From: Mayamaea pseudoterrestris
Taxonomy: Eukaryota
DNA length: 64,000 nt
Assembly (NCBI GenBank): GCA_027923505.1
Contig: BROI01000007.1
Span: 372,001-436,000, forward strand
Direction: 5' to 3'
Positions 153 through 57,492 of the stretch are shown here, one piece after another; positions within the stretch are counted from its first letter, which is position 1, and each line of letters begins with the position of its first letter. The translations under genes were made by a program, and so were the position numbers. The notes beneath the pieces are model-generated. The model searched no databases. It saw nothing but the letters and a program-made list of their open reading frames with translations, and was not told the DNA's origin.

Positions 153-159
153 ACCCAAT

Positions 160-470: not shown

Positions 471-715
471 GTAAACTAAGGGACCCGCCAGTGAAAAAAA
501 ACCTTGCAGCGCCCCTATGAGAGTGGGTTGTTGATAATTTTACTGCATCTGCCATATGCATCTACATTCAATACTAGCTGTCATCCAAAGAGTAGTCAAT
601 TTAAACACAACAACATCCATAAATCGAGCCCTCGGTCAGAATCAAAATAGTACATAAACTTGATATCTATATTTTAAAGCTTCTTTACAGCATCACAAAG
701 GTATTTCCACACGCT

Positions 716-10700: not shown

Positions 10701-12266
10701 TTAATCGATTGCGAGTCGACATGATCCTGGCGGCTCAATATTCGTCATGTGTGTTCTCCAGCCATTGGCTTCTAGCTCTACTCGAAACGCGTCATACGAG
10801 TCTTGACATTTTATGTAGCTTTGCCGAATGCTCGCCGTACCATCTTCCAAAGAACCAGTAGCACGCTGTTGCCGAAGAATATACGCATGATACATGCCCC
10901 GAATGAGGTCTTCTGCATCCGCGCTGTCGAGGAAAACTAAAATCACCGACGACCCATTGTTGTCGTGAGCTGTTGATGATATCACATACTTGTCATCGGG
11001 GCAGTCTTTGCGAATATCGTCAAGCTGGTTAGCACCATTGGGAGCTAGCCTTTGAAGACTGGTTCCAATGCTTAACCAATCGCTGGAGTCTCTGTCTTTA
11101 ACAATTGGAAGGTACTGCTCACGTCGGGCTACTTGTCTTGGCGTAAGGATTTGGTTTGACTCAAAATATTCCTCGAGCACCAGGTCGAGACGTTGCCGAT
11201 TGAAATGGTCTAAAGAAACATATCGCATCGCCATATAGTTGCATCCAAGATGAGTCGCCGATAGAAAACAAAATCCCAGAACAAAATTTGACGGATCATT
11301 GTTCAATACCATGGTGGACAAGCCCAAACCGACGCCCGTGCCGACAAGGCCTGCAGCCATACTCTGAGTTCCTGCCTTGACAGTAACGTCTGCCAAGTTA
11401 TTGTTCAGCGCTATCGACTGGTGAAGAGCTGCTCGACTCGCACTAGCCGTCAAGAAACCAATATTTTTGAGAACATTTGCTGCGCAGGCAACTGGAAGCA
11501 CCACCCACGATGCGGCGAATGGCGAGAGAATCTCCATGAGTGCCGCAGCATCCAAGGCGAGAGCTGCCGTCATGCGCCACTTTTTCGGATGAGTATCGAA
11601 TCGCTTCGTGTGACCCATGCGACTGGCAAACCAAACTCCGCCAAGTTGTCCAACACCTGCATGGATGCACGAGGGAAAAGACTGTGGGTATGCCGAGGCA
11701 GTGCGCATGGCTTTCATTGCCACGTATGGATTTACCACTTAAATAAATCCACCACACATTTGCTTACCATCCTTGAACACCCAATTGAGAGCTCCAGCCA
11801 TGATGCCAGCTGTTTGCATTTGATGCGATCCGACGACACCCACGGCCAGCAGTAAAGTCTGCGTCGACAATACCATGCCGGCACTTCCAGCGACGGATGC
11901 CGCAAAGCAAAATGAAGTGAATTTGGCATACTCGGGTTGTACACTGTGAGGATACTGAGCCGGAAGGAAGTGACTGATGACGTTTACATACAAGTAGTCT
12001 TGCAGCGAAAACGATGAGAGTGGATTCGTTGCAAGATGAGGCTCCTGCTTCTTCCAGGCGCTAGCACCGACCGGAATATAAACAGTAGCTCTCTTGTAGT
12101 GTTTCCTATCGTTCTTTTGCACACCAACTGCATGTTCCGAAGCTGGGTACTCCGTCACTGTGACAAACTGCGAAATTGTCGGCTTTGTTGACGACGTTAC
12201 ACTGGAGCATCGCACTCGGCGCAGTTGCTGCGCCATTGACGAACGGACAAGTTTATATGAAAACAT
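10701..12266 (-). CDS. RUS1/DUF647 (root UVB-sensitive) family protein; intron 11657-11767
   Basis: FLPAQYPHSV..EY, VLSTQTLLLAVG, ALNWVFKDG|VGQLG, FD.HPKKWR, ASRAALHQS.A..NNLADVTVK. Confidence 0.9.
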
Positions 12267-12978
12267 ATTGCTATCTTTTATATCATAGTATCATAACCAA
12301 AGCTTTTAATGGCATTAACAAGAGGGACTCGACAGGAGGTGCAGCAAGGCATGATGTGTGCTCCAATTCTCATGGTCGCGAGGATGAAATTTATGACAGG
12401 ACGTCTTATCGGTACTGCCAGGTCAGCATTCTTCGAAGAAGCTCTCGGCTGAGAAGTTACATTGCCCCGAACTAAATCATCCAATGGTTGGTTGGCCTTT
12501 CCTGTTCGACCGTTCGTCGGAAAAGAGGCAATAGTGCAATCGAACGATAAAGTATTCTAGGCTTAAATCATAAGTGGGTGACGCGCCCTTTATTCGTTGT
12601 TTTTCTGAGTCATTTTTGTTCCTACAATCCTCCGGGTTCCCGACTCTCTACGGTTTCGTCGCGCGTGAATCAATTCTTGCGACTCCGACCGTTCCTGTTT
12701 GAGTCGTCCTTTGCAGATTTGCCTTCCTCTTCGATCGGCTGTCATCTCTTGCTGTCGTCCATCAGAGAGTCTTGCTTGCATTCATTCACCGTGGCACCCT
12801 TCATTCCTGACTATTGACTCTTCTGCTTCGGGCCGTGGTGATAGTCAATTGCTACTTGCGCCTTTCCAGCTTTTTGTCAAGTCCAAATTTACTTGCTGCT
12901 CCTTTTGTCGAATCGAAGGCAGCTTTTACACCTTTATAAGCAGCCTCTTATTTACGTTGCACCTACCGCCTTACTAAG

Positions 12979-19954: not shown

Positions 19955-21615
19955 CTATATAAAAAGTCTATGGTGCTCTTCGTTTATCTCGTCGTTGCTG
20001 TCAGAAACACTGTTTGCAATGGGCGTTGGCTTTTCATTTTCTTCGGTGATGCAAAGCGCATCGGCATCGATAATCTCCACCTCGACCGATTCATCCGGTA
20101 TACGACTCTTGTACTTTCCCGGACTTCCATTCATTGGCGGTAGTAGCGGCGCCGGTGGAATCTTTCGAACCGACAGTCGCGAGAATAGTCGGAAATCGTT
20201 ATTCTTTACTTGAGCATGCGGCCAAAGGTCAGGTCGATTTGCCGACTGTCTTCGGATCAAAGGTGCTCGTCCATCCGGAGTCTCCTCGGAGGAACGATTG
20301 TAAAACAACACGTAGGCGGATGAACAATTCTTTTTCATTGTCGCAGTCGAAATGGAACGCACTCTTTGGTCATTGAACTCGTACCACTGGTCATCAAACC
20401 GATTCAAACCATAGGATGTATAATGTCCGCTTCCCATGGATCCCATCTGGTTGGCAACCGCGTACAGGTCGTATACCGGGCGCTCTCCTCCTTGGCGAAC
20501 CCTGAGACTGGTCAGGTCCCATTTTGTAATGGGATAGTCAATGGGTGCATTATTCTTTGATCCTACATGTCCGTATTCGTTGAACCTGAATCGCTTCAAA
20601 TGCACAATGAGAATTGGGGGCAGTATCCAAATGTCAGTTTGCTTCGTTGAATCTCGATGGGTATGGCATTTGGAGCAGTACCACTGATTGTCGCCCGAAA
20701 GTTTCTCCTTGAGCAAATAGAGCCTCAAGCAATCGTCCAAGGTCTGGCAAGAGTCGTTCATTGGCAACGACAAGTACATGAAAGGCTCAAAGCGAATATT
20801 CTTGTGTTTACAGTGCAAGCAAGTCAATGTATTTTTTAGTTGCCCCTGAAAAATGTCAACAATGAGCGATTTGTCGCGCCGCAGATAATTCTTCCATGCA
20901 TTAATGGCATCCTGCTCGTCATTTGTCCCGTCCAAGTCGGGATCTTCGATATAGGGCTTCTTTTTTATGCGATTGAGGTCTTCGTGCTTTGGATAAGGTA
21001 AGGGTGATTGAATGAGGCAACACGTTTATGTGATTACTTTCGCCAGCCCTCCCAAGCGTTGCCGACACTTACAATACCGTCCAGCAGAAAGCTGAGCACT
21101 TCATGAGCATCATGCTGCCGTCCGCCAGCAAACTGAGGAGCAAATTTTTCCAGGCTCTTTTTGAAAGCGACAGGCGCAAAGACAGTATTGTTCCCCAGCC
21201 AAATAGATTTCATCAGCTCGGCGTATGCAGTCACCAACTTGCCTCCGGTCCCAAGAAAGTTGTTCTTGTTAATTTCAGACCGATAGTCGTAGCCCAAAAA
21301 GTAATCCGTTAGCGGAATCGTATTGCTGAGACATTGCAATGAGCTATTTAGAAAGCAAGTGTTTCCAAGGTTCCGCAGTCCAACCGCACCAAGAGGCATG
21401 TCTTTTCCGTGATCCGACATGGCCATTTCAAAGTTCACCTTGACGGCGTCGTGCACATGATTGTAGTTGCTTGACCGCATCGGACTCGATGGATTACCTG
21501 CATTGGCATTATGACGTCGCGGCATGACGCGAAACATGCCGGAATCTGTCGTTGTAGCGTCTCCATCTTCAGGCGTTGTTTGCCGTCGTTCTGGATGGGA
21601 TGGCTTATTTCCCAT
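19955..21615 (-). CDS. Ubiquitin-specific protease (peptidase C19); intron 20987-21072
   Basis: Cys box GLRNLGNTCFLNSSLQCL, QHDAHE, LLDGI|HEDLN, VHLKRF, His box GSGHYT, WYEFND; N-terminal MGN. Confidence 0.95.
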
Positions 21616-21951
21616 GCTACCGTAATCTATGCAAAATCGTACGTTTGCCACACTAGTACAAAAGAATATACACTGCGCGCAGTCTTGCTGATGGAGCGTC
21701 GTTCGACCAGATTCGCAAATGGTGCGGGATCACCCTCTCATGGTTGTTGACGATTCATCTTTCATCGGATGGTGCGACGTGCGCATCAGACATTACTGTG
21801 CTGCTTGGTGTACACAGTTTCGTCATACCTTCTTTTCAGTGTCGCTTTGCTTCGGACAGACTCTGCGTTTTCGACGCAACAAAAATAATTGACCATGGCG
21901 CACGCTTTTTCCCATGTGTTAAAAGGCAACCAGTTTTATTCGCTTTAAACA

Positions 21952-34108: not shown

Positions 34109-35925
34109 TTAGTGCGAAAATTGACGCTTATCAGATGTTTCTCGTCGTCCATACGGATTGTCGGCCGAGAAGGAGCCTTGGCCCTTCTTCCTGTTGACAT
34201 CCTTTTTTCGCTTCTCCTTTCCAAACGCCATGTCCACACGCGGTGGCGTTGTGAACCCAAATGCCTTGCCAACAGCTTGTAGATCGAGCTGATGAACGTT
34301 AAAAATATCACGCTGCGAGTGGCTCGCATACGCCAAAAGGTAGCTTCGATACGCATCCCGAGCAGACCGATTCAGGTAGTAATTCGTTTCAATGAGCCGC
34401 TCGAGCTGCGACTGCACATTGGCCACCTTGTTGGTGGGAAATTCGTATTCATTCAGCGTCACCTTGGCCGCCTTGAGATATCTCAAAAAGCCAGTTTCTT
34501 CTGGTGTCAGGAGAAGCAAAGCCCGGCCCGAGCCCGTGGCGCCGCGAGCTGTTCGACCGACACGGTGACTAGAGATGAGGTGTAGATTGGAAAAAGGAAC
34601 GTGAGCCAAAGGTATGCATGCATATATGTATTGAAAATCCTCTCTTTTACATACATGTACTCCTTTGGATCATCAGGCGGATCAAACTGTATAATCCAAT
34701 CCACCTTTGGAATATCCAAACCTCGTGCCGCCACATCGGTACAAAGCAAGGTGCCACTATCGCTCTTGCAGAATTGGAAGAAGGTCGTCGTCCGCTTGAC
34801 TTGCTTTTGTCGGCCGTGAATATCAAGGACCGGTACGTCAATATAGTTAAGTAGCTCAGCGTGAAATTTGACACTGTTGCAGCTACTAAAAAAGACCATG
34901 ATCTTCTTCTTGCGATTCTTCTTCAGAAACGTGAAAAGCAAGAGGAAGCGCTTGTCAGATGCCACCGTCACGAACCCTTGTTCCAGTCCAGCTGCTGTTG
35001 CCAGATTCGATTCATTCTCCACCTCGACAAAGATTGAATTCTTGGGATTGACAGACAGTCTAACTAGATCCTGCACCTTTTTTGTTTGTGTTGCACTAAA
35101 CAACATGGTTTGTCGTTCCTTGGGCAGCAGCTTTAGGATTGACCTCAAATCGTCCTCGAAACCTTGCTCCAGAATGCGATCAGCTTCATCCATGCATAGT
35201 GTCAGCAAGTTGCGAACGTTAAAGCCCTTCGAGTTTTGCAAGTGATCCAACAGTCGACCCGGCGTGGCAACGATGCAATTGACTCCCTTGCTCAGCTTGT
35301 CAGCCTCCGTCTTGCGATTAGCGCCTCCCATAATGAGACCAAAAGTTTGAGTATGATGACCAACATCAGTTTTGTTATTGGTACTGAGCATGCATTCCTG
35401 CAAGACGCCGTAAATTTGCATGGCCAATTCCCTCGTTGGACTTAGAATGATTGCACCCGTTCCATTCTTTGGCGTAAATTTGGCCTTGTAAAGCAATTCA
35501 ATAATGGGAATGACGAACGCAAGAGTCTTGCCGCTTCCCGTCTTGGCAGCGCCAATCAAGTCCTTGCCGGAAAGGAGGGGAGGAATTGCCTTGGCTTGAA
35601 TCTGCGTCATGCGGACCATTTTCATGCCGTCGAGGGCAGCAAGCGTCTTTTCTGACAGCGGAAGACTACTGAAAACGTCGTTGGGGTCTTGGGAGTAAAA
35701 GTTGGGTTTGTCAATGACGAGTTCGTCTTCGACTTTGTCGTCTTGCGTTGTTTTGGTGCGTTTACTTGACGCGTCGTCGGCGGTCATGATTTCTTCATTA
35801 GCATCGTCCTTCGAACGTTTCTTCTTCGAGAATATTTCCACAGGCTCCTCCTCATGCTGAACATCAGCAATTTCTTCTTCTTCCGGCTTTGCCTTTGGTG
35901 ACTTGGTCTTGTCCTTCTTACCCAT
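34109..35925 (-). CDS. HAS1: DEAD-box RNA helicase Has1/DDX18; intron 34569-34654
   Basis: [60 protein letters not shown]. Confidence 0.96.
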
Positions 35926-36143
35926 GCTAGTATACTTGTCAATGTCAATAGAACGGCAAATGTTGAACGAGAAATGCAAAATTGCGAACAACGAAGGGCG
36001 CTCGCAAAAGGTCATGAGCTGTAACGCTGCGACATGGACAGCTCACCACGAGAGCGAACCGCGCCGCCTCCACACGCGCAGATCATTCTCCTTCCGCAAT
36101 GTTCCAAACCTTAATAGTTTTTATAAATATATAGGAGAGTAAC

Positions 36144-37112: not shown

Positions 37113-37868
37113 ATGCTTGTATATGCGATGGTTGATGCAGACTGTACGAGACGAGTTGTACGATGGTTTGGCCTGAAAGAAACAAGGCAAAAGCATTCTA
37201 TAGGTATTAGAATTGAGTAACTTCACGAGCAAAAGCTAGTACACTCCGATTAGGTTGTAAACCGTTGCAGGTCTGGACCTTTCGAGCTCAGATGGCTGCA
37301 GACCCCTTTGCTTCAAAGCCATCGACACGTCGACATGTTGCTTGACAAATCATATCTCTGCTGGCTGAATCTTATTCTTAACACTCCAGCTGCTACTACT
37401 ACGATAGGTTGGGTTTCTTCATGGGTACCTGTATGAGCCAGTTTGCCAAGTGATTCGAAATGCAGGCCCAATCCCCTGCGTGACAATTGGTGCCCAGTCA
37501 GAGGGCTTCTGACACAGAATGGAACACTAAACTTATAGATTTTGTTGAAATTGTAGCGTGTAATTGCGTACAGTAATTGCATGAGCATAGAGCATAACCT
37601 TCTTGTAGTTTGCAAGCCGCCGCATAGCTAAACCTCTCTCTGTCGAAAGCGGCAAGCAAACGATCACACGACTCTTGTACAACTACGTGGACGCGACGCT
37701 CGCTTTGGCCCATAACTTACCAAACGGTTCGCAGATATGAAAGGATTGCGCGTACAGTACTTTTATATCAGATCACTTTGTCGTGCAAAAGGCTGAATCG
37801 AACAGCTAGGCCGTCAAGCCTCAACGGAACTGAAGTCCGTCCCCACCACCAGGCAGGTTCATTTGCAC

Positions 37869-42529: not shown

Positions 42530-42631
42530 TGTGGAAGCTATATAAATATGTATAATATGTTCAAAAGCCAAAGTATAGTGTGGAAGCTATATAAATATGT
42601 ATATAATATGTTCAAAAGCCAAAATATAGTG
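42530..42631. repeat. AT-rich tandem duplication, ~50 bp x2
   Basis: tgtggaagctatataaatatgt...ttcaaaagccaaa at 42530 and 42579. Confidence 0.9.
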
Positions 42632-42651: not shown

Positions 42652-42932
42652 CCCCAAACTATGGAATCATACCACTACAATGCCCTGTGCCCTGGCCACC
42701 CAACAACCCAATGAGTCAGGCAAAACATGTCCAGGGTGTGCCATTGACATGAGGATGGTCTGAAATGGTGCAAAACGGACTGCCTGGAGGCCTACACCAT
42801 GGAATGGTCTGCAGGCTGGGTGTGGCCAACACCCCAAATTATGGAATCATACCACTACAATGCCCCGTGCCCTGGCCACCCAACAACCCAATGAGTCAGG
42901 CAAAACATGTCCAGGGTGTGCCATTGACATGA
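42652..42932. repeat. Direct repeat with 180-bp period (~1.5 copies)
   Basis: ccccaaa.tatggaatcataccactacaatgccc...ccattgacatga at 42652 and 42832. Confidence 0.9.
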
Positions 42933-43752
42933 TCAGTCAAACAAGCCACTGCTGTCCTGCCATGGTTGTGGAAGGGTGCCATGACACAGTATAGTCTCCA
43001 TTTCATTGTTTTATGAACCATAAAATGATGGGCCTAGCCATTGTTCCTGCTATATGCCACTTGCTCTGGCACCCACAAGCACTTGGAATGATCCATTCTT
43101 GCGCAAAACCCAAACATATATGTAAGTGACTGTTCTACATGCCAATAATGGATTTCAGGCACCAAGCTCTGGCCAAGCTCTGGCCAATGCTCCAGAGACT
43201 GTGTGAAAACAAACACACCGGTTGACTGCCAAACACCAACCAGGCTCCCACCACTTGCTGAAGGAGGCTTCAGTGCATCATTGATCAGTCAAACAAGCCG
43301 ATGCTGTCCTGCCATGGTTGTGGAAGGGCGCCATGGATTGGTATAGTCTCCATTTCATTGTTTTATGAAACATAAAATGATGGGCCTAGCCATTGTTCCT
43401 GCTATATGCCACTTGCTCTGGCTCCCACAAGCACATGGAATGATCCATTCTTGCGCAGAAATCCAAAATATAAATGTTAGTGACTGTTCTACACGCCAAT
43501 AATGGATTTCAGGCACCTAGCTCTGGCCAAGCTCTAGCAAATGCTCCAGAGATTGTGTGAAAATAAACACACCAGTTGACTGCCAAACACCAACCAGGCT
43601 TCCACCACTTGCTGAAGGAGGCTTCAGTGCAACATTGATCAGTCAAACAAGCCACTGCTGGTGGAAGGGCGCCATGGATTGGTATAGTCTCCATATCATT
43701 TGTTTTATGAACCATAAAATGATGTTCCTGCTATATGCCACTTGCTCTGGCA
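42930..43752. repeat. Tandem repeat with ~353-bp period (~2.3 copies), CpG-poor
   Basis: tgatcagtcaaacaagcc at 42930, 43282 and 43636, with collinear downstream sequence. Confidence 0.9.
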
Positions 43753-43755
43753 CAC

Positions 43756-46700
43756 GTTGGCACCATTCTGGTGTATTTTAGGCACCTACCGGGCTTGCTG
43801 TAGGGGCGTTTGAATGTCACGGCATCTGCGGGCTGAGACTGGTGACAAGTTGTCACCAAATACATTGCCATCCCCTGAGACACCAGTCAAGCCTACCATC
43901 TTGTAGCGCAGCCTGAATAGGGATGTTGGCAATCTTCCGGTGTATTTTGGGCACCTACAGGGCTTGCTGTAGGGGTGTTTGAATGTCACGGCATCTGTGG
44001 GCTGAGACTGGTGACAAGTTGTCACCAAAGACATTGCCATCCCCTGAGATACCAGCCAAGCCTACCATCTTGTTGCGCAGCCTGAATAAGGATGTTGGCA
44101 CCATTCTGGTGTAAGTTAGGCACCTACAGGGCTTGCTGTAGGGGCATTTGAATGTCATGGCATCTGTGGGCTGAGACTGGTGACAAGTTGTCACCAAATA
44201 CATTGCCATCCCCTGAGACACCAGCCAAGCCTACCATCTTGTAGCGCAGCCTGATTAATGATGTTGGCACCATTCTGGTGTATTTTGGGCACCTACAGGG
44301 CTTGCTGTAGGGGCGTTTGAATGTCGCGGCATCTGCGGGCTGAGACCGGTGACAAGTTGTCACCAAATACATTGCCATCCCCTGAGACACCAGTCAAGCC
44401 AACCATCTTGTAGCGCAGCCTAAATAATGATGTTGGCACCATTCTGGTGTATTTTGGGCACCTACAGGGCTTGCTGTAGGGGCATTTGAATGTCAGGGCA
44501 TCTGCGGGCTGAGACTGGTGACAAGTTGTCACCAAATACATTGCCATCCCCTGAGACACCAGTCAAGCCTACCATCTTGTAGCGCAGCCTGAATAATGAT
44601 GTTGGCACCATTCTGGTGTATTTTGGTCACCTACAGGGCTTGCTGTAGGGGCATTTGAATGTCAGGGCATCTGCGGGCTGAGACTGGTGACAGGTTGTCA
44701 CCAAATACATTGCCATCCCCTGAGACACCAGCCAAGCCTACCATCTTCTAGCGCAGCCCGATTAATGATGTTGGCACCATTCTGGTGTATTTTGGGCACC
44801 AACAGGGCTTGCTGTAGGGGCATTTGAATGTTGCGGCATCTGCGGGCTGAGACTGGTGACAAGTTGTCACCAAATACATTGCCATCCCCTGAGACACCAG
44901 CCAAGCCTACCATCTTGTTGCGCAGCCTGAATAATGATGTTGGCACCATTCTGGTGTATTTTGGGCACCTACAGGGCTTGCTGTAGGGGCGTTTGAATGT
45001 CACGGCATCTGCGGGCTGAGACTGGTGACAAGTTGTCACCAAATACATTGCCATCCCCTGAGACACCAGGCAAGCCTATCATCTTGTAGCGCAGCCTGAA
45101 TAATGATGTTGGCACCATTCTGGTGTATTTTGGGCACCTACAGGGCTTGCTGTAGGGGCGTTTGAATGTCACGGCATCTGCGGGCTGAGACTGGTGACAA
45201 GTTGTCACCAAATACATTGCCATCCCCTGAGATACCAGCCAAGCCTACCATCGTGTAGCGCAGCCTGAATAATGATGTTGGCACCATTCTGGTGTATTTT
45301 GGGCACCCACAGGGCTTGCTGAAGGGGCGTTTGAATGTCACAGCATCTGCGGGCTGAGACTGGTGACAAGTTGTCACCAAATACATTGCCATCCCCTGAG
45401 ACACCAGTCAAGCCTACCATCTTGTAGCGCAGCCTGAATAATGATGTTGTCACCATTCTGGTGTATTTTGGGCACCTACAGGGCTTGCTGTAGGGGCGTT
45501 TGAATGTCACGGCATCTGCGACTGAGTCTGGTGACAAGTTGTCACCAAATACATTGCCATCCCCTGAGACATAAGCCAAGCCTACCTTCGTGTAGCGTAG
45601 CCTGCATAATGATGTTGGCACCATTCTGGTGTAATTTGGGCACCTGCAGGGCCTGCTGTAGGGGCGTTTGAATGTCGCGGCATCTGCGGGCTGTGACTGG
45701 TGACAAGTTGTCACCAAATACATTGCCATCCCCTGAGACACCAGGCAAGCCTACCAATCTGTCGCGCAGCCTGCAAAATGATGTTGGCACCATTCTGGTG
45801 TATTTGGGCACCTACAGGGCTTGCTGTAGGGGTGTTTGAATGTCACGGCATCTGCGGGCTGAGACTGGTGACAAGTTGTCACCAAATACATTGCCATCCC
45901 CTGAGACACCAGCCAAGCCTACCATCTTGTAGCGCAGCCTGAATAATGATGTTGGCACCATTGTGGTGTATTTTGGGCACCTACAGGGCTTGCTGTAGGG
46001 GTGTTTAAATGTCAGGGCATCTGCGGGCTGAGACTGGTGACAAGTTGTCACCAAAGACATTGCCATCCCCTGAGACACAAGCCAAGCCTACCATCGTGTA
46101 GCGCTGCCTGAATAATGATGTTGGCACCATTCTGGTGTATTTTGGGCACCTACAGGGCTTGCTGTAGGGGCGTTTGAATGTCACAGCATCTGCGGGCTGA
46201 GACTGGTGACAAGTTGTCACCAAATACATTGCCATCCCCTGAGACACCAGTCAAGCCATCCATCTTGTAGCGCAGCCTGAATAATGATGTTGGCACCATT
46301 CTGGTGTATTTTGGGCACCTACAGGGCTTGCTGTAGGGGCGTTTGAATGTCGCGGCATCTGTGGGCTGAGACTGGTGACAAGTTGTCACCAAATACATTG
46401 CCATCCCCTGAGATACCAGCCAAGCCTACCATCTTGTAGCGCAGCCTGATTAATGATGTTGACAACATTCGGGTGTATTTTGGGCACCTACAGGGCTTGC
46501 TGTAGGGGCGTTTGAATGTCGCGGCATCTGCTGGCTGAGACTGGTGACAAGTTGTCACCAAATACATTGCCATCCCCTGAGACACCAGTCAAGCCTACCA
46601 TCTTGTAGCACAGCCTGATTAATGATGTTGGCACCATTCTGGTGTATTTTGGGCACCTACAGGGCTTGCTGTAGGGGCGTTTGAATGTCGCGGCATCTGC

Positions 46701-49154
46701 GGGCTGAGACCGGTGACAAGTTGTCACCAAATACATTGCCATCCCCTGAGACACCAGTCAAGCCAACCATCTTGTAGCGCAGCCTAAATAATGATGTTGG
46801 CACCATTCTGGTGTATTTTGGGCACCTACAGGGCTTGCTGTAGGGGCATTTGAATGTCAGGGCATCTGCGGGCTGAGACTGGTGACAAGTTGTCACCAAA
46901 TACATTGCCATCCCCTGAGACACCAGTCAAGCCTACCATCTTGTAGCGCAGCCTGAATAATGATGTTGGCACCATTCTGGTGTATTTTGGTCACCTACAG
47001 GGCTTGCTGTAGGGGCATTTGAATGTCAGGGCATCTGCGGGCTGAGACTGGTGACAGGTTGTCACCAAATACATTGCCATCCCCTGAGACACCAGCCAAG
47101 CCTACCATCTTCTAGCGCAGCCCGATTAATGATGTTGGCACCATTCTGGTGTATTTTGGGCACCAACAGGGCTTGCTGTAGGGGCATTTGAATGTTGCGG
47201 CATCTGCGGGCTGAGACTGGTGACAAGTTGTCACCAAATACATTGCCATCCCCTGAGACACCAGCCAAGCCTACCATCTTGTTGCGCAGCCTGAATAATG
47301 ATGTTGGCACCATTCTGGTGTATTTTGGGCACCTACAGGGCTTGCTGTAGGGGCGTTTGAATGTCACGGCATCTGCGGGCTGAGACTGGTGACAAGTTGT
47401 CACCAAATACATTGCCATCCCCTGAGACACCAGGCAAGCCTATCATCTTGTAGCGCAGCCTGAATAATGATGTTGGCACCATTCTGGTGTATTTTGGGCA
47501 CCTACAGGGCTTGCTGTAGGGGCGTTTGAATGTCACGGCATCTGCGGGCTGAGACTGGTGACAAGTTGTCACCAAATACATTGCCATCCCCTGAGATACC
47601 AGCCAAGCCTACCATCGTGTAGCGCAGCCTGAATAATGATGTTGGCACCATTCTGGTGTATTTTGGGCACCCACAGGGCTTGCTGAAGGGGCGTTTGAAT
47701 GTCACAGCATCTGCGGGCTGAGACTGGTGACAAGTTGTCACCAAATACATTGCCATCCCCTGAGACACCAGTCAAGCCTACCATCTTGTAGCGCAGCCTG
47801 AATAATGATGTTGTCACCATTCTGGTGTATTTTGGGCACCTACAGGGCTTGCTGTAGGGGCGTTTGAATGTCACGGCATCTGCGACTGAGTCTGGTGACA
47901 AGTTGTCACCAAATACATTGCCATCCCCTGAGACATAAGCCAAGCCTACCTTCGTGTAGCGTAGCCTGCATAATGATGTTGGCACCATTCTGGTGTAATT
48001 TGGGCACCTGCAGGGCCTGCTGTAGGGGCGTTTGAATGTCGCGGCATCTGCGGGCTGTGACTGGTGACAAGTTGTCACCAAATACATTGCCATCCCCTGA
48101 GACACCAGGCAAGCCTACCAATCTGTCGCGCAGCCTGCAAAATGATGTTGGCACCATTCTGGTGTATTTGGGCACCTACAGGGCTTGCTGTAGGGGTGTT
48201 TGAATGTCACGGCATCTGCGGGCTGAGACTGGTGACAAGTTGTCACCAAATACATTGCCATCCCCTGAGACACCAGCCAAGCCTACCATCTTGTAGCGCA
48301 GCCTGAATAATGATGTTGGCACCATTGTGGTGTATTTTGGGCACCTACAGGGCTTGCTGTAGGGGTGTTTAAATGTCAGGGCATCTGCGGGCTGAGACTG
48401 GTGACAAGTTGTCACCAAAGACATTGCCATCCCCTGAGACACAAGCCAAGCCTACCATCGTGTAGCGCTGCCTGAATAATGATGTTGGCACCATTCTGGT
48501 GTATTTTGGGCACCTACAGGGCTTGCTGTAGGGGCGTTTGAATGTCACAGCATCTGCGGGCTGAGACTGGTGACAAGTTGTCACCAAATACATTGCCATC
48601 CCCTGAGACACCAGTCAAGCCATCCATCTTGTAGCGCAGCCTGAATAATGATGTTGGCACCATTCTGGTGTATTTTGGGCACCTACAGGGCTTGCTGTAG
48701 GGGCGTTTGAATGTCGCGGCATCTGTGGGCTGAGACTGGTGACAAGTTGTCACCAAATACATTGCCATCCCCTGAGATACCAGCCAAGCCTACCATCTTG
48801 TAGCGCAGCCTGATTAATGATGTTGACAACATTCGGGTGTATTTTGGGCACCTACAGGGCTTGCTGTAGGGGCGTTTGAATGTCGCGGCATCTGCTGGCT
48901 GAGACTGGTGACAAGTTGTCACCAAATACATTGCCATCCCCTGAGACACCAGTCAAGCCTACCATCTTGTAGCTCAGCCTGAATGAGACCATTCTGGTGT
49001 ATTGCACCTACAGGGCTTGCAGCATGTCACGGCATAAGACTGGACAGAAAATTGCCATCCCGAGACACCAGCCAAGCTACCATCTTGTAGCGCATTGATC
49101 ATTCGGTGTATTTTGGGCACCTACAGGGCCTGCTGTAGGGGCGTTTGAATGTCA
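43756..49154 (+). repeat. 169-bp satellite array, left block (~32 monomers)
   Basis: Head-to-tail monomer gttggcaccattctggtgtattttgggcacctacagggcttgctgtagggg...tggtgacaagttgtcacca...; repeated ORFs offset by 169. Confidence 0.99.
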
Positions 49155-49544
49155 TATCTTCACCGGGCCCATACCTGTTGGTAGGCGTCCTATCGAGAGA
49201 TCTGACTGAGGCTGCTGGTTCGAGATCCGAAGGAATCAGGCGAAGGAAAAAAAAAAATTCACTGGTTGCACGGGTTTGTCACGAACGAACGATGGGGAGT
49301 CGCGGACCCTGGGGAGTGCACAAAGATGCGCCGAGCCCGAAACGCCGCAGGAAAAACTGAAAAGTGACATTCCCCCGCGAGACGAAAATGCCAGCTGAAA
49401 CGGAAGACGAGTTAGCACTATGACGCGCAAAGCTAGGGGAGTAGCAGGTTGCACACGAAAAACAGCAACCAGAGCGATACCTTTACTTGTCATAGTGCAT
49501 GGTGCCTTGTATGCAGCATATAGTACACTAGCAGACGGAAAAGT

Positions 49545-49603
49545 AGCAGCGTGTTTAGAGGTGATATAGCCGGTTATCCTTGGTTCGATTCCGAGGTGCG
49601 CTA
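49545..49603 (+). ncRNA. tRNA-like module (59 nt, non-canonical), copy 1
   Basis: Acceptor AGC(A)GCG/TGCGCT plus discriminator A; T-arm CCTTGG-TTCGATT-CCGAGG with perfect B box GGTTCGATTCC; short GATA/TATC arm; no proper D arm; followed by cTTTT. Confidence 0.65.
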
Positions 49604-50014
49604 CTTTTAACGGCATAGTGATACTACTTTCTGTTGCATACCTGCTATGGTAGCGTCCCTATCGAGAGATCTGGACTGAGGCTGCTGGTTCGAGTTGCGA
49701 TCGAATCAAGCGAAGAAAAAGCAAAAATTCACTGGTTGCACGGGTTTGTCACGAACGAACGATGGGGAGTCGCGGACCCTGGGGAGTGCACAAAGATGCG
49801 CCGAGCCCGAAACGCCGCAGGAAAAACTGAAAAGTGACATTCCCCCGCGAGACGAAAATGCCAGCTGAAACGGAAGACGAGTTAGCACTATGACGCGCAA
49901 AGCTAGGGGAGTAGCAGGTTGCACACGAAAAACAGCAACCAGAGCGATACCTTTACTTGTCATAGTGCATGGTGCCTTGTATGCAGCATATAGTACACTA
50001 GCAGACGGAAAAGT

Positions 50015-50073
50015 AGCAGCGTGTTTAGAGGTGATATAGCCGGTTATCCTTGGTTCGATTCCGAGGTGCGCTA
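50015..50073 (+). ncRNA. tRNA-like module (59 nt), copy 2
   Basis: Identical to 49545-49603. Confidence 0.65.
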
Positions 50074-50117
50074 CTTTTAACGGCATAGTGATACTACTTT
50101 CTGTTGCATACCTGCTA

Positions 50118-53100
50118 GGGCTGAGACTGGTGACAAGTTGTCACCAAATACATTGCCATCCCCTGAGACACCAGTCAAGCCAACTATCTTGTAGCGCAGC
50201 CTGAATAATGATGTTGGCACCATTCTGATGTATTTTGGGCACCTACAGGGCTTGCTGTAGGGGCGTTTGAATGTCAGGGCATCTGCGGGCTGAGACTGGT
50301 GACAAGTAGTCACCAAATACATTGCCATCCCCTGAGACACCAGCCAAGCCTACCATCTTGTAGCGCAGCCTGATTAATGATGTTGGCACCATTCTGGTGT
50401 ATTTTGGGCACCTACAGGGCTTGCTGTAGGGGCGTTTGAATGTCACGGCATCTGCGGGCTGAGACTGGTGACAAGTTGTCACCAAATACATTGCCATCCC
50501 CTGAGACACCAGCCAAGCCTACCATCTTGTAGCGCAGCCTGATTAATGATGTTGGCACCATTCTGGTGTATTTTGGGCACCTACAGGGCTTGCTGTAGGG
50601 GCGTTTGAATGTCACGGCATCTGCGGGCTGAGACTGGTGACAAGTTGTCACCAAATACATTGCCATCCCCTGAGACACCAGCCAAGCCTACCATCTTGTA
50701 GCGCAGCCTGATTAATGATGTTGGCACCATTCTGGTGTATTTTGGGCACCTACAGGGCTTGCTGTAGGGGCGTTTGAATGTCACGGCATCTGTGGGCTGA
50801 GACTGGTGACAAGTTGTCACCAAATACATTGCCATCCCCTGAGACACCAGCCAAGCCTATCATCTTGTAGCGCAGCCTGAATAATGATGTTGGCACCATT
50901 CTGGTGTAATTTGGGCACCTACAGGGCTTGCTGTAGGGGCTTTGGAATGTCACGGCATCTGCAGGCTGAGACTGGTGACAAGTTGTCACCAAATACATTG
51001 CCATCCCTTGCGATACCAGCCAAGCCTACCATCTTGTAGACCAGCATGAATAATGATGTTGGCACCATTGTGGTGTATTTTGGGCACCTACAGGGCTTGC
51101 TGTAGGGGTGTTTGAATGTCACGGCATCTGTGGGCTGAGACTGGTGACAAGTTGTCACCAAATAAATACATTGCCATCCCCTGAGACACCAGCCAAGCCT
51201 ACCATCTTGTAGCGCAGCCTGAATAATGATGTTGGCACCATTCTGGTGTAATTTGGGCACCTACAGGGCTTGCTGTAGGGGCGTTTGAATGTCACGGCAT
51301 CTGCGGGCTGAGACTGGTGACAAGTTGTCACCAAATACATTGCCATCCCCTGAGATACCAGCCAAGCCTACCATCTTGTAGCGCAGCCTGCATAATGATG
51401 TTGGCACCATTCTGGTGTATTTTGGGCACCTACAGGGCTTGCTGTAGGGGCGTTTGAATGTCATGGCATCTGCGGGCTGAGACTGGTGACAAGTTGTCAC
51501 CAAATACATTGCCATCCCCTGAGACACCAGCCAAGCCTACCATCTTGTAGCGCAGCCTGATTAATGATGTTGGCACCATTCTGGTGTATTTTGGGCACCC
51601 ACAGGGCTTGCTGTAGGGGCGTTTGAATGTCACGGCATCTGCGGGCTGAGACTGGTGACAAGTTGTCACCAAATACATTGCCATCCCCTGAGATACCAGC
51701 CAAGCCTACCATCTTGTAGCGCAGCCTGATTAATGATGTTGACAACATTTGGGTGTATTTTGGGCACCTACAGGGCTTGCTGTAGGGGCGTTTGAATGTC
51801 ACGGCATCTGCGGGCTGAGACTGGTGACAAGTTGTCACCCAATACATTCCCATCCCCTGAGACACCAGCCAAGCCTATCATCTTGTCGCGCAGCCTGAAT
51901 AATGATGTTGGCACCATTCTGGTGTAATTTGGGCACCTACAGGGCTTGCTGTAGGGGCGTTTGAATGTCACGGCATCTGTGGGCTGAGACTGGTGACAAG
52001 TTGTCACCAAATACATTGCCATCCCCTGAGATACAAGCCAAGCCTACCATCCTGTAACGCAGCCTGCATAATGATGTTGGCACCATTCTGGTGTATTTTG
52101 GGCACCTACAGGGCTTGCTGTAGGGGTGTTTGAATGTCACAGCATCTGCGAGCTTAGATTGGTGACAAGTTGTCACCAAATACATTGCCATCCCCTGAGA
52201 TACCAGCCAAGCCTACCATCTTGTAGCGCAGCCTGCATAATGATGTTGGCACCATTCTGGTGTATTTTGGGCACCTACAGGGCTTGCTGTAGGGGCATTT
52301 GAATGTCACGGCATCTGCGGGCTGAGACTGGTGACAAGTTGTCACCAAATACATTGCCATCCCCTGAGACACCAGCCAAGCCTACCATCTTGTAGCGCAG
52401 CCTGCATAAGGATGTTGGCACCATTCTGGTGTATGTTAGGCACCTACAGGTCTTGCTGTAGGGGCATTTGAATGTCGCGGCATCTGCGGGCTGAGACTGG
52501 TGACAAGTTGTCACCAAATACATTGCCATCCCCTGAGACACCAGGCAAGCCTACCATCGTGTAGCGTAGCCTGCATAATGATGTTGGCACCATTGTGGTG
52601 TATTTTGGGCACCTACAGGGCTTGCTGTAGGGGCGTTTGAATGTCACGGCATCTGCGGGCTGAGATTGGTGACAAGTTGTCACCAAATACATTGCCATCC
52701 CCTGAGATACCAGCCAAGCCTACCATCTTGTCGCGCAGCCTGATCAATGATGTTGGCACCATTCTGGTGTATTTTGGGCACCTACAGGGCTTGCTGTAGG
52801 GGCGTTGGAATGTCACGGCATCTGCGGGCTGAGATAGGTGACAAGTTGTCACCAAATACATTGCCATTTCTTGAGATACCAGCCAAGCCTACCATCGTGT
52901 AGCGCAGCCTGAATAATGATGTTGGCACCATTCTGGTGTATTTTGGGCACCTACAGGGCTTGCTGTAGGGGCGTTTGAATGTCGCGGCATCTGCGGGCTG
53001 AGACTGGTGACAAGTTGTCACCAAATACATTGCCATCCCCTGAGACACCAGTCAAGCCTACCATCTTGTAGCGCAGCCTGAATAGGGATGTTGGCACCAT

Positions 53101-55148
53101 TCTGGTGTATTTTGAGCACCTACAGGGCTTGTTGTAGGGGCGTTTGAATGTCACGGCATCTGCGGGCTGAGATTGGTGACAAGTTTGTCACCAAATACAT
53201 TGCCATCCCCTGAGATACCAGCCAAGCCTACCATCGTGTAGCGCAGCCTGAATAATGATGTTGGCACCATTCTGGTGTATTTTGGGCACCCACAGGGCTT
53301 GCTGTAGGGGCGTTTGAATGTCACGGCATCTGCGGGCTGAGACTGGTGACAAGTTGTCACCAAATACATTGCCATCCCCTGAGACACCAGCCAAGCCTAT
53401 CATCTTGTAGCGCAGCCCTGAATAATGATGCCGGCACCATTCTGGTGTATCTTGGGCACCTACAGGGCTTGCTGTAGGGGTGTTTGAATGTCACGGCATC
53501 TGCGGGCTTAGATTGGTGACAAGTTGTCACCAAATACATTGCCATCCCCTGCCATCCCCTGAAACACCAGCCAAGACTACCATCTTGTAGACCAGCATGA
53601 ATAATGATGTTGGCACCATTCTGGTGTAATTTGGGCACCTACAGGGCTTGCTGTAGGGGTGTTTCAATGTCACGGCATCTGCGGGCTGAGATTGGTGACA
53701 AGTTGTCACCAAATACATTGCCATCCCCTGAGATACCAGCCAAGCCTACCATCGTGTAGCGCTGCCTGAATAATGATGTTGGCACCATTCTGGTGTATTT
53801 TGGGCACCCACAGGGCTTGCTGTAGGGGCGTTTGAATGTCACGGCATCTGCGGGCTGAGACTGGTGACAAGTTGTCACCAAATACATTGCCATCCCCTGC
53901 GATACAAGCCAACCCTACCATCTTGTAGCGCAGCCTGATTTATGATGTTGGCAACATTTGGGTGTATTTTGGGCACCTACAGGGCTTGCTGTAGGGGTGT
54001 TTGAATGTCACGGCATCTGCGGGCTGAGACTGGTGACAAGTTGTCACTAAATACATTGCCATCCCCTGAGACACCAGCCAAGCCTATCATCTTGTAGCAC
54101 AGCCCTGAATAATGATGCCGGCACCATTCTGGTGTATCTTGGGCACCTACAGGGCTTGCTGTAGGGGTGTTTGAATGTCACGGCATCTGCGGGCTTAGAT
54201 TGGTGACAAGTTGTCACCAAATACATTGCCATCCCCTGAGATACAAGCCAAGCCTACCATTTTGTAACGCAGCCTGCATAATGATGTTGGCACCATTCTG
54301 GTGTATTTTGGGCACCTACAGGGCTTGCTGTAGGGGTGTTTGAATGTCACAGCATCTGCGAGCTTAGATTGGTGACAAGTTGTCACCAAATACATTGCCA
54401 TCCCCTGAGATACCAGCCAAGCCTACCATCTTGTAGCGCAGCCTGCATAATGATGTTGGCACCATTCTGGTGTATTTTGGGCACCTACAGGGCTTGCTGT
54501 AGGGGCATTTGAATGTCATGGCATCTGCGGGCTAAGACTGGTGACAAGTTGTCACCAAATACATTGCCATCCCCTGAGACACCAGCCAAGCCTACCATCT
54601 TGTAGCGCAGCCTGCATAAGGATGTTGGCACCATTATGGTGTATGTTAGGCACCTACAGGTCTTGCTGTAGGGGCATATGAATGTTGCGGCATCTGCGGG
54701 CTGAGACTGGTGACAAGTTGTCACCAAATACATTGCCATCCCCTGAGACACCAGGCAAGCCTACCATCGTGTAGCGTAGCCTGAATAATGATGTTGGCTA
54801 AATTCTGGTGTATTTTGGGCACCTACAGGGCTTGCTGTAGGGGCGTTTGAATGTCACGGCATCTGCGGGCTGAGATTGGTGACAAGTTGTCACCAAATAC
54901 ATTGCCATCCCCTGAGATACCAGCCAAGCCTACCATCTTGTCGCGCAGCCTGATCAATGATGTTGGCACCATTCTGGTGTATTTTGGGCACCTACAGGGC
55001 TTGCTGTAGGGGCGTTGGAATGTCACGGCATCTGCGGGCTGAGATAGGTGACAAGTTGTCACCAAATACATTGCCATTTCTTGAGATACCAGCCAAGCCT
55101 ACCATCGTGTAGCGCAGCCTGAATAATGATGTTGGCACCATTCTGGTG
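50118..55148 (+). repeat. 169-bp satellite array, right block (~30 monomers)
   Basis: Same monomer and orientation as the left block; ends at ...gttggcaccattctggtg. Confidence 0.99.
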
Positions 55149-55269: not shown

Positions 55270-56426
55270 TTACAGTAAGCGCAGCCAACCAGAGCTGCCC
55301 AAGAACGCAAAATAAAGTGACAGAGCAAGTATAAAAGCTGCAAAAGCCACATTCAACACTTGTTCAAATGCAAAACCTACTCCTCTTGCAGCTGCTCGCG
55401 CTACTTTATCTCCTTGCACTGGAGGTGGCATTGGCTGGTTGTACGGTTGAACAACCCGCACTGTTGGAGCTCTTGGCGTCTTGTACCCAGTTCGTGGCAG
55501 CTGGAGGCGTACTTTGATGCAGCGGAAAGTGCTTCCGTTATTGGTTGGCAAAACTACAATCTCAACGGCTCCTTCTGCCAATGGCTCCACCTTGCGTCCA
55601 AGGTCAATGTAGTCGCTGCTGCCGACATAGACCAATTCCTTGTCGGTGGCCCGAACTTGTTGCACAGCACGCTGGAAAGCAGCCGTCTCTGCGGAACTCA
55701 ATGCACAAGGCCCAAAGGATTCATCTGCAACGCGTTGGGCGTCAAAAAACTCATTAGGCACACGCTGCAAAACAAGCAATGAGCGCTGATCCTTGGAAAG
55801 CTGAACTTGTACGTGCTTGGGTTCAATGCCAGAGTTGGCAAGCAGCCGAACGGTCATTTCTTCGTCTCCTTTCTCATTAGTGAAAGGGCCACAAATGAGC
55901 TTGTAGAAGGTTCCATTGGTGCATGATGCTTGCTTGTGGGAAGGCTTGTAATGAGACATGATGGTACTACCAAGAATGCTGTTGATTTCTTGGCTGTCGA
56001 TTTCTTCAAACTGCGTCAATTCTTCCGTCGGGTCGCTAGCCAAGGTGTACGACTCGTCTTCTGACTCGTCTGCAGAAATGGAGAAAGTGATATGAGTGAG
56101 TGCTTGAAAATGACACTTTGCTGTTTCGCAAGTCGCGACTTACCTGGCGCACTTGGTTGAAGGTGGCCTGGAGGCAGAACTGGAGGCGGCAAAGGTTGAC
56201 GACGACCTCCTTGAGCTTGCTTGTTCGCAAGGTATTCTTGAGCAGTGCGTCGATAGTTGTTGAGCCAGTTCCGTTTCTTCACTTGGCCAAAAAGACGTTG
56301 GTGGAGACGGTAGATATTGTGAATGTAGAGCACGTCGTCAATTTTGTGTGGGTCAGCTTCGTTACGATCAAACAAGGCACAAAGATTGGCTCCCTCAACT
56401 TTGGACTGCCAGCGTCCATCAGCCAT
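55270..56426 (-). CDS. Transposon accessory protein; exons 56426-56144 and 56069-55270
   Basis: GTAAGT...TGCAG intron joins two ORFs in frame (..PSAP-D-ESEDESYTLASDP..); C-terminal hydrophobic helix. Confidence 0.7.
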
Positions 56427-56585: not shown

Positions 56586-57492
56586 ATGAGAGTCCCTTCA
56601 GAACATTTTGTTGACATTGGCAATGGAATAATGTCGCGTCATGGTGTCACTGGCCAGACTGACCGACGCTTCCGCTCAACATTTGGCACCACACCAGCAA
56701 TTTGCAGCATTCTTTGGGACAAACTAGATCCTGAAAGGTTTATTCACAAGAGAGCTGAACCAAAACATTTGTTATGGGGCTTGATGCTCATGAAACTCTA
56801 TCTCCCTGAGCGTGCAATAGTTTCCTTGGCTGGTGGAGTTGACGAGAAGACCTTTTCAAAGTGGAGCTGGCTTTTCATTGATCAAATCTCATTCTTGGAG
56901 ACACAAGTGGTGAGTTTGGCTGGTGAAGCTCCAAGTTGCTACTTGTTTCTTTCATTTCTCATGCTGTTATTGCCATGCTGATCCACAGATTCGTTGGGAA
57001 AACCGCCTTCAAAATGACATTGGAAATGATTGTCTGGTTTCAGTGGATGGCACTGATTTCCGCATTCAACAGTTTCAACCATTTTGGAAAGGGTGGTACT
57101 CCCATAAATTCAATGGGCCAGGTCTGCGCTGGGAAGTTGCACTCTGCATTCGTACAGGTCATATTGTGTGGCTTTCTGGTCCTTTTCCTTGTGGTGAATG
57201 GCCCGACATCAAGATTTTTCGTCAAGCTTTGAAGGGAATGCTGGGCCAAGGTGAACGTGTGGAGGCAGATGATGGATATGCTGGAGAATGTCCTCGGTTT
57301 GTGGTGGCACCAATTCGGTTTGCTGAAAGTGCTGCGCGTGTTGCCCTGACCAAGCGGGTGCGGGCAAGGCATGAAACCGTGAACAAGCGTTTTAAGCAAT
57401 GGGGCTGCTTGAAGCAAGTCTTTCGGCATGCGCCATCAAAGCAATCTTCAATGTTCCGCTCTGTTGCCGTAGTCACTCAGAGTCGAGATTGA
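56586..57492 (+). CDS. DDE_Tnp_4 (Harbinger/ISL2EU-like) transposase, 3'-disrupted; intron 56910-56988
   Basis: RRFRSTFG, PKHLLWGLMLMKLY, VSVDGTDFRI, YSHKFNGPGLRWEV, W.D..IF, EADDGY.G, RARHETVNKRFKQWG.L. Confidence 0.9.

Follow-up and report, generated by a model that had tools for sequence, protein, structure and literature searches.

Organization of the 470-bp unit

We analysed a 64,000-nucleotide stretch of the genome of the raphid diatom Mayamaea pseudoterrestris (assembly GCA_027923505.1, contig BROI01000007.1, positions 372,001 to 436,000 of the forward strand), referred to below as the window. It harbors a 470-bp unit, arranged as a head-to-tail dimer from 49170 to 50117 (2.0 copies with 97% matches by tandem-repeat analysis), that interrupts a 169-bp satellite. 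Each copy of the unit carries a long imperfect hairpin, the rod, which is tipped by a head resembling a transfer RNA (tRNA). The initial annotation had considered this hairpin by itself and had missed the tandem unit inserted in the satellite; we tentatively regard the tRNA-like rod as a module of a small non-coding mobile element and not as a free-standing gene.

Each complete unit comprises a segment that resembles a long terminal repeat (LTR) and a short internal domain (Table 1). From left to right, the dimer consists of a 9-nt remnant of an LTR-like end, an older internal domain, an LTR-like segment, an internal domain and a second LTR-like segment. The two LTR-like copies are identical in 390 of 390 columns, whereas the left remnant (49170-49257), aligned with 49637-49727, is identical in 75 of 91 columns (82%), with 13 mismatches and 3 gaps. 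The 3' end of the first LTR-like copy corresponds to the point at which the insertion ends in the second. In the complete unit, the first bases after the LTR-like end, at 49648-49655, form the motif TGGTAGCG, which is similar to a primer-binding site (PBS). The internal domain closes with the purine tract AAGCGAAGAAAAAGCAAAAA, which is the 20-mer of the unit that is richest in purines (18/20) and abuts the next LTR-like copy at 49728; the plus strand of the unit is itself purine-rich (57%). Two direct terminal repeats surround a short non-coding internal domain, as in terminal-repeat retrotransposons in miniature (TRIMs), and a polypurine tract precedes the 3' LTR-like copy, the tract itself defining that limit of the copy. 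The rod lies in the last third of the LTR-like segment, with 6 nt separating it from the LTR end and the PBS-like motif, and the tRNA-like part ends 43 nt upstream of this motif. The 8 nt of TGGTAGCG are exactly complementary to the 3' strand of the element's own tRNA-like part with its discriminator A and an added CCA; the same 8-mer was present in 156 of 20,000 shuffled units. The open reading frames (ORFs) of the unit, namely those of 140/144 amino acids on the minus strand and three others, matched no Pfam family at E<=1, and the unit has no recognisable coding capacity.

Table 1. Coordinates of the 470-bp dimer, its parts and the adjoining satellite arrays. Positions are those of the window; a dot stands for no assigned strand.
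Feature	Position	Strand	Remarks
169-bp satellite, left array	43756-48984	.	31.0 copies, 94% matches; followed by decayed monomers up to 49154
Left-junction filler, 15 nt	49155-49169	.	TATCTTCACCGGGCC; matches neither satellite nor unit; unique in the window
Left remnant	49170-49257	+	Last ~9 nt of the LTR-like end (CATACCTGT) and older diverged internal domain (TGGTAGGCGTCC ... GGCGAAGG A11)
LTR-like segment, copy 1, 390 bp	49258-49647	+	Hairpin 1 and rod lie in its last 235 nt
Neighbouring long imperfect hairpin (hairpin 1)	49413-49500	+	Inverted repeat, 8 nt upstream of the rod
Rod with tRNA-like head, copy 1	49509-49641	+	45 pairs, 33 of them outside the head (folds and pair list)
Best cloverleaf-like reading	49522-49604	+	83 nt, 8-nt anticodon loop, long variable arm, A:T first acceptor pair (ARAGORN)
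Canonical T arm	49579-49595	+	CTTGG-TTCGATT-CCGAG; 5-bp stem, loop TTCGATT; B-box match GGTTCGATTCC at 49582-49592
TTTT	49605-49608	+	Directly 3' of the acceptor-like 3' strand; pairs with AAAA at 49539-49542
Internal domain, 80 bp	49648-49727	+	Starts with PBS-like TGGTAGCGTCC (49648-49658), ends with purine tract AAGCGAAGAAAAAGCAAAAA (49708-49727)
LTR-like segment, copy 2, 390 bp	49728-50117	+	Ends together with the insertion, at the same base; satellite from 50118
Rod with tRNA-like head, copy 2	49979-50111	+	Identical to copy 1
169-bp satellite, right array	50118-55148	.	29.7 copies, 93% matches

The unit in independent assemblies

Contigs of four public runs (X1, X3, X4 and X5, from two studies) were compared with positions 49100-49690; these belong to a set of 8 runs, of which none is recorded as RNA. 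Each of the four runs has one contig that 'goes back 470'. Since this is seen in 4/4 runs, the head-to-tail junction exists outside the present assembly, in a tandem or a circular form, and is no artefact. A diverged 151-nt contig (X1 record 8) has 14 other letters over 49522-49648; the arms of the rod are unreadable in it, and its match stops at 49648. Another contig, of 5414 nt (X5 record 27), has no more than 49623-49658 in common with the unit, with 4 other letters, and this 36-nt block is composed of 25 nt of the LTR-like end and the 11 nt of the PBS-like motif. The flanks of this contig are loose ends with an identical consensus in 4/4 runs; in our own reading of the loose-end letters, 14 of the 17 next nucleotides match after a 1-nt shift, and the 30 nt upstream are unrelated. 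A second genomic locus thus shares the last 25 nt of the LTR-like segment and the primer-site motif and, as far as can be read from these letters, a short leader. These are parts that would be expected to be common to related LTR elements or to an autonomous partner. Because the second locus shares only this LTR-end/PBS block and the leader, the tRNA-like part and the inner rod appear specific to the present element. The end of the insertion, the end of the match in X1 record 8 and the 36-nt shared block all coincide at the boundary 49647/49648.

The tRNA-like head

The head contains a canonical T arm whose B box matches the consensus GGTTCGANNCC perfectly; in the 64 kb this match occurs only in the two copies of the unit, against an expectation of 0.37. 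The sole TTTT on the plus strand of the 470-bp unit, as we read it, is the one that directly follows the acceptor-like helix. Together, the T arm with its B box, the acceptor-like helix and the adjoining TTTT have, at the level of the sequence, the layout of a tRNA-type gene of RNA polymerase III (Pol III); any Pol III activity is putative. The first acceptor pair is A:T, and an A1:U72 pair marks eukaryotic initiator tRNAs.

Of the features of a canonical tRNA gene, the head has the T arm/B box and a downstream T-run terminator, and lacks a cloverleaf with a 7-nt anticodon loop that passes standard detectors. At its default setting ARAGORN did not report the head and found tRNA-Sec alone in the window; at 95% of the threshold it reported the 83-nt cloverleaf, with a weak D arm and an 8-nt anticodon loop, in agreement with the initial annotation, which had seen no canonical 7-nt loop. 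In 60 block-shuffled windows, ARAGORN yielded 1 match at default, 8 at the 95% level (0.13 per 64 kb) and 70 at the 90% level. The Rfam tRNA model had no match at E<=10 in 48800-50400 or in 49255-49735, where the same scans gave nothing above noise (sno_ncR3, 16.4 bits; RMST_1, 14.3 bits) and no 5S, hammerhead or RNase P/MRP RNA; at gathering scores, tRNA-Sec was the only Rfam match of the window. With its sub-threshold ARAGORN score, 8-nt loop and lack of an Rfam tRNA match, the head is most aptly described as a tRNA-type sequence that is decayed or partial.

Other candidates of this kind were dropped. A supposed resemblance of 49295-49385 to motifs of RNase MRP RNA found no Rfam match. A second tRNA-like sequence at 49645-49730 ('module B') was tried as a paralogue of the head; its alignment was equalled by 81 of 2000 shuffles locally and by 559 of 2000 globally, and ARAGORN reports it only at 60% of the threshold. 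A permuted or intron-split tRNA was sought in the dimer with introns of 0-450 nt at 80% of the threshold, and only the same 83-nt model was returned.

Folding of the rod

The minimum-energy fold of 49509-49641 is a single imperfect rod of 45 pairs (41 Watson-Crick and 4 G-U). Three helices follow one another from the flanks inward (49509-49518 with 49632-49641, 49521-49532 with 49613-49626, and 49536-49547 with 49600-49612) and lead to a 52-nt head; the outer rod accounts for 33 pairs, of which 32 are Watson-Crick and a single one is G-U. This is the tRNA-like head on a long imperfect stem that the initial annotation had described, and the three arm pairs that it had named are all present. AAAAGTAGC (49539-49547) pairs with GCTACTTTT (49600-49608) at 9/9 positions, which places the TTTT inside the stem as claimed. 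TAGTACACTA (49521-49530) pairs with TAGTGATACTA (49616-49626) with one bulged base, and GTATGCAGCA (49509-49518) with TGTTGCATAC (49632-49641) with one G-T pair. The 5' acceptor strand of the cloverleaf belongs to the 5' arm of the rod, so that the two folds are mutually exclusive.

Stability was compared with 200 shuffles per sequence. As plus-strand RNA, the rod folds at -45.2 kcal/mol, against -32.4 +/- 3.7 for its shuffles (z -3.49; 1/200 as good), which bears out the expectation that it would fold better than shuffled controls. The minus strand (z -2.94; 1/200) and folding with DNA parameters (z -3.14; 1/200) gave similar values. The G+C content of the rod is 44%; among native 133-nt windows outside repeats and within +/-0.02 of this value, 2 of 1664 fold equally well, and when G+C is left unmatched 476 of 8516 do, so that the raw energy is unexceptional in the 64-kb window. 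The two G+C-matched windows that equal the rod lie at 20591-20723 (+, -46.0 kcal/mol) and at 55281-55413 (-, -45.3 kcal/mol), the latter within an ORF just right of the satellite. The signal sits in the arms: the 62-nt head alone has a z of -0.74 (50/200 shuffles as good), the 70-nt core one of -2.24 (2/200), and the putative Pol III product, the 87 nt that begin with the cloverleaf and end at the T run, one of -0.26 (73/200).

The neighbouring hairpin 1, at -31.6 kcal/mol (z -5.49; 0/200 shuffles as good), is more exceptional than the rod. It was tried as a paralogue of the rod, and the alignment was equalled by 242 of 2000 shuffles, giving no detectable kinship. A viroid-like or wholly structured 470-bp unit was also rejected, with a z of -1.49 on the plus strand (10/100 shuffles as good) and of -0.91 on the minus strand (23/100).

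The initial annotation had taken the structure to be selected at the RNA or single-stranded DNA level, as a processing signal or an internal Pol III promoter. Its stability above shuffles, the perfect B box and the TTTT behind the acceptor-like helix speak for that reading. Maintenance at the RNA level left no sign: the outer pairs are nearly all Watson-Crick, and the rod forms alike on either strand and as DNA. Moreover, a processing rod and a Pol III promoter conflict with each other, as a transcript that ends at the TTTT lacks the outer 3' arm (49609-49641). Because the Pol III stop precedes this arm, the rod needs a longer transcript or DNA. Both copies in the window and the contigs of the four public runs are identical in the rod, which leaves zero compensatory changes to count and gives no sign of selection on the structure; any function of the hairpin itself would be hypothetical.

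The same evidence bears on a functional RNA, which might come from a small tRNA-like gene transcribed by Pol III or else be a mimic that is cut by RNase P/RNase Z to mark processing sites and that the rod would present. The stability of the rod among shuffles and G+C-matched native windows, the B box confined to the unit copies and the position of the TTTT would suit such an RNA, as would an A-box-like TAGCAGACGG at the expected place, which agrees at 6 of the 9 specified positions with the consensus TRGCNNAGTGG, and a leader AAAA that pairs with the trailer TTTT within the stable 70-nt core. We nevertheless find it improbable: the Pol III product cannot form the rod and its 87 nt are unstructured, no Rfam family matches, all readable copies are identical, and in a rod that is almost entirely Watson-Crick and folds on both strands nothing marks an RNA strand.

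Folding on both strands and with DNA parameters would also agree with a DNA-level palindrome that has a role in chromatin, either as a cruciform or other non-B DNA or as a boundary bound by TFIIIC. The B box is a TFIIIC site, and each monomer of the surrounding satellite carries two dyads of its own (TGGTGACAA/TTGTCACCA and GCACCTACAG/CTGTAGGGGC). The satellite might conceivably be centromeric; the rod is part of the inserted unit and not of the satellite. We regard a role of this type as extremely unlikely.

A candidate miniature LTR retroelement

The anatomy of the unit leads us to a tentative interpretation, plausible if short of probable, in which it is a non-autonomous LTR retroelement akin in type to TRIMs and Cassandra, present as a tandem and inserted in the 169-bp satellite. 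The 470 bp would then represent one LTR (390 bp) and a short internal domain (80 bp), kept as an 'internal-LTR-internal-LTR' tandem. The internal domain would open with TGGTAGCG as the complement of a tRNA 3' end ...CGCUA-CCA and close with a polypurine tract abutting the next LTR. The two LTR-like copies are identical in full beside a remnant that matches in 75 of 91 columns, and this fits a young LTR element, whose LTRs should be identical. The rod would form a stem beside the primer site if Pol II transcribed the element in full length, as do the U5/leader stems of retroviruses and LTR retrotransposons. At the tip of the rod would sit a tRNA-type gene, captured and since decayed, of which the T arm/B box, an A:U-topped acceptor helix and the T4 stop are left; the LTRs of Cassandra elements in plants hold a 5S gene copy in an analogous way.

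Retrotransposition of the unit would be primed by the host initiator tRNA. The letters of TGGTAGCG recur in yeast Ty1, where they follow the LTR immediately, from nt 335, and where we take them to be the initiator-tRNA primer site. According to passages of two papers, Ty1 opens at nt 335 with TGGTAGCGCC (primer 'Ty335F'; PMC7055915, PMC5408680). Mobilisation could be carried out by host Copia-type elements. Passages of the genome report describe a 30.6-Mb diploid, Nanopore-based assembly of M. pseudoterrestris with 19% repeats, 'mainly' Ty1-Copia LTR retrotransposons (PMC9724779), so that helper enzymes would be available.

Several observations weigh against this interpretation. The match of the PBS-like motif is to the element's own tRNA-like sequence and to the general initiator-tRNA motif, and was noticed post hoc, after other TGG motifs. 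The LTR-like segments start with TTCAC... and end with ...TGCTA, and not with TG...CA. Their 5' limit is set solely by the purine tract. The left end of the insertion is a truncated remnant joined to the satellite through a 15-nt filler, so that a target-site duplication would be unrecognisable. The head taken alone is borderline, given the 8 matches at the 95% level of ARAGORN in 60 shuffled windows and the lack of an Rfam match. No reverse transcriptase or integrase was found in 33 long ORFs, out of the 45 of the window, or in 5 short ORFs of the unit, and besides the dimer there are no further copies of the unit in the 64 kb. Finally, the purine tract varies like a homopolymer, reading A11 in the left remnant as against A5GCA5 in the complete unit, and in a contig of one run (X5 record 26) the unit is bordered on either side by at least 25-26 A; the tract looks more like a poly(A) tail than like a typical polypurine tract.

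A tail of this kind would be expected of a poly(A) retroposon similar to tRNA-derived short interspersed nuclear elements (SINEs), with a tRNA-related head at 49522-49604, a body of ~100 nt and an A tail at 49716-49727; a reverse transcriptase of the long interspersed nuclear element (LINE) type would have produced the tandem by template jumping. As in tRNA-derived SINEs, a tRNA-related module with a B box is followed on the same strand, ~110 nt downstream, by an A-rich tract, here of variable length (A11, A5GCA5, at least 25 A), and the purine-rich plus strand would agree with such an origin. Unlike in those elements, a T4 stop follows the tRNA-like part and would end Pol III transcripts before the body. 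The insertion ends neither at the head nor at the tail but 80 nt upstream of the A tract, 250 nt of each unit would lie outside the SINE, and neither flanking duplications at the two junctions nor dispersed copies in the 64 kb were seen. We thus regard a SINE-like retroposon as distinctly improbable.

The locus might instead be a patchwork of DNA without any mobile element, in which a decayed tRNA gene with its native T4 stop came to lie beside an inverted repeat that arose by chance or by fold-back, the rod being functionless; the segment would then have been tandemly duplicated and joined to the satellite by illegitimate recombination. The T arm, the A:U-topped acceptor helix and the TTTT suit a former tRNA gene, and the head is no stabler than its shuffles (z -0.74). 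The arms differ mostly by insertions and deletions with a single G-U, as in the neutral decay of a DNA palindrome, and the left junction has filler DNA and decayed monomers. The window has no other copy of the unit, and no Rfam or Pfam family matches it. What such a patchwork leaves unexplained is that the insertion end, the end of the match of the diverged copy and the 36-nt shared block all fall at 49647/49648, that TGG... follows directly after 49647, that the purine tract abuts the repeated 390 bp, and that 390 identical bp stand beside 91 columns at 82%. On balance this account is unlikely, with a weight that is far from negligible; if it were true, the finding would be an ordinary one, a decayed tRNA gene in duplicated DNA.

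Within the LTR retroelement interpretation, a self-primed element might also be envisaged, in which a Pol III-transcribed tRNA mimic borne by the LTR, and not a host tRNA, primes reverse transcription. Trimming of its 3' end at the discriminator A (49603) and addition of CCA would yield a mimic ending in ...GCGCUACCA, which would exactly complement the element's own TGGTAGCG 43 nt downstream, and the rod would hold the mimic and the primer site together in the genomic RNA. We consider this very unlikely. In a weaker form of the idea, the unit may be a diatom counterpart of Cassandra with a tRNA-type gene in place of 5S.

Comparison with known systems

Among known elements, the unit is reminiscent of the Cassandra TRIMs of plants. 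In the passages of PMC7215508 on these elements, each LTR contains a 5S gene copy with a Pol III promoter and terminator, the primer site lies 8-173 nt downstream of the 5S copy, and tandem arrays occur in which single LTRs alternate with internal domains, along with multi-unit transcripts. The diatom unit likewise is short and non-coding. Its LTR-like segment contains a gene copy of the Pol III type, complete with a promoter box and a T-run terminator; a primer-site motif lies nearby (43 nt downstream), the short internal domain ends in a purine tract, and LTR-like segments and internal domains alternate in tandem. The resemblance is architectural only: the gene copy is tRNA-like and has no Rfam 5S match, and the PBS-like motif reads TGGTAGCG... 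where that of Cassandra reads TGGTATCAGAGC. Furthermore, the host is a diatom and not a vascular plant, the termini are not TG...CA, only one locus was seen, and no similarity in sequence is expected.

Retrozymes give circular RNAs, and the small non-coding unit resembles them in its LTR-type organization, in the structured RNA module within its LTR and in its tandem, circular-looking form. Unlike in retrozymes, no hammerhead or other ribozyme was found in the Rfam scans of both intervals at E<=10, and the module is tRNA-like. Retrozymes, the subject of the abstract of PMC5680766, are non-autonomous LTR-type retroelements with hammerhead ribozymes in their LTRs.

Processing signals offer a further parallel. 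The mascRNA of MALAT1 and the t-elements of plant mitochondria are tRNA mimics that serve as such signals. As in these, an acceptor helix and a T arm without a working anticodon arm are embedded in a longer sequence; here, in contrast, the mimic sits at the tip of a 33-bp rod within a repeat unit, and its cleavage would be hypothetical. The unit also recalls the circularly permuted tRNA genes of unicellular algae, in which, in the passages of PMC3978253, the intervening sequence is 1-74 bp in the known cases. In the unit, a complementary GGTAGCG lies 43-44 nt beyond the 3' acceptor strand CGCTAC. Unlike in permuted genes, no cloverleaf assembles, 3 extra nt lie between the T stem and the acceptor register, and no bulge-helix-bulge motif was identified. 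A Helitron-type element, which should have 5' TC, 3' CTRR and a subterminal 3' hairpin and insert between A and T, was rejected despite the hairpin 6 nt before the right end, as the ends are CATACC... and ...TGCTA/GGG (the slash marks the junction) and the target is not A/T.

Relatives of the unit were searched for by a pattern scan, which gave 0 in metagenome, viral and prokaryote genome contigs, and by a protein-based scan with the flanking gene, which gave 0 in metagenome contigs. A literature search by keyword and with satellite and unit strings returned no description of either, the supplementary repeat tables of PMC9724779 lying outside this search; in the passages of that paper, the words 'tRNA', 'centromere' and 'telomere' have 0 occurrences.

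The satellite and its surroundings

The 169-bp satellite amounts to ~61 copies within a gene-dense region. At its left junction with the dimer, the monomers at 48985-49154 are decayed by deletions, unlike the remaining array, and the filler TATCTTCACCGGGCC is present in 0 of 41 satellite monomers examined. No flanking target duplications were seen at the two dimer junctions. The left border of the satellite comprises a 51-bp tandem unit (x2.0, 42530-42631) and a 354-bp unit (x2.3, 42930-43724), and a diverged 168-bp relative of the satellite is found at the start of the window (157-472; 1.9 copies, 83% matches).

In the public runs, the contig depth of the unit is 38.8, 15.6 and 17.2 (X1, X3 and X4) and 685 (X5), values that are not copy numbers and were not used as evidence. 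The unit contig is about as deep as that of the other locus (685 versus 531 for the 5414-nt contig in X5), which was not used as evidence either. Satellite bins are 100-700x deeper than the unit in X1, X3 and X4 (sums in the thousands) and 50-100x shallower in X5 (sum 7-14). The contrast of X5 with the other three is compatible with RNA as well as with DNA of a satellite-poor strain, does not decide between them, and was likewise set aside. As the summed depth of the satellite exceeds that of the unit several hundredfold in three runs, other satellite arrays probably exist, depth again not being copy number. Bins 49160-49199, at the left junction and the start of the remnant, are without cover in the four runs, which proves nothing.

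The rest of the window contains long, closely packed ORFs on both strands; the domains in those scanned include elongation factor 3, allantoicase, fucosyltransferase and a DEAD-box helicase. The allantoicase shares 99% identity with a protein listed at NCBI under M. pseudoterrestris. The tRNA-Sec gene (37782-37868, minus strand; ARAGORN, and Rfam at 67.8 bits) is its sole standard tRNA gene. A 192-aa ORF at 56914-57492 (+), 1.8 kb right of the satellite, has a borderline match to the DDE transposase domain PF01609 (E 5.9e-5, 23.4 bits versus a cut-off of 23). Three genes on the minus strand are each split over two ORFs that adjoin or overlap: one with a UVB-sensitivity domain (10701-12290), a ubiquitin hydrolase (19955-21729) and a DEAD-box helicase with its C-terminal extension (34109-36042). 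Short introns or frame errors in the assembly could account for these three.

Biological significance

If the unit is indeed a miniature LTR retroelement, it would be a TRIM-like element outside land plants whose LTR bears a gene copy of the Pol III type. At the same time it would provide a case of a retroelement inserted in a long satellite array of a diatom, a group in which satellites and centromeres are poorly described. Miniature LTR elements would then have captured small-RNA genes repeatedly, 5S in plants and a tRNA-like sequence here, and the role of such captured genes would become testable in a compact, culturable diatom.

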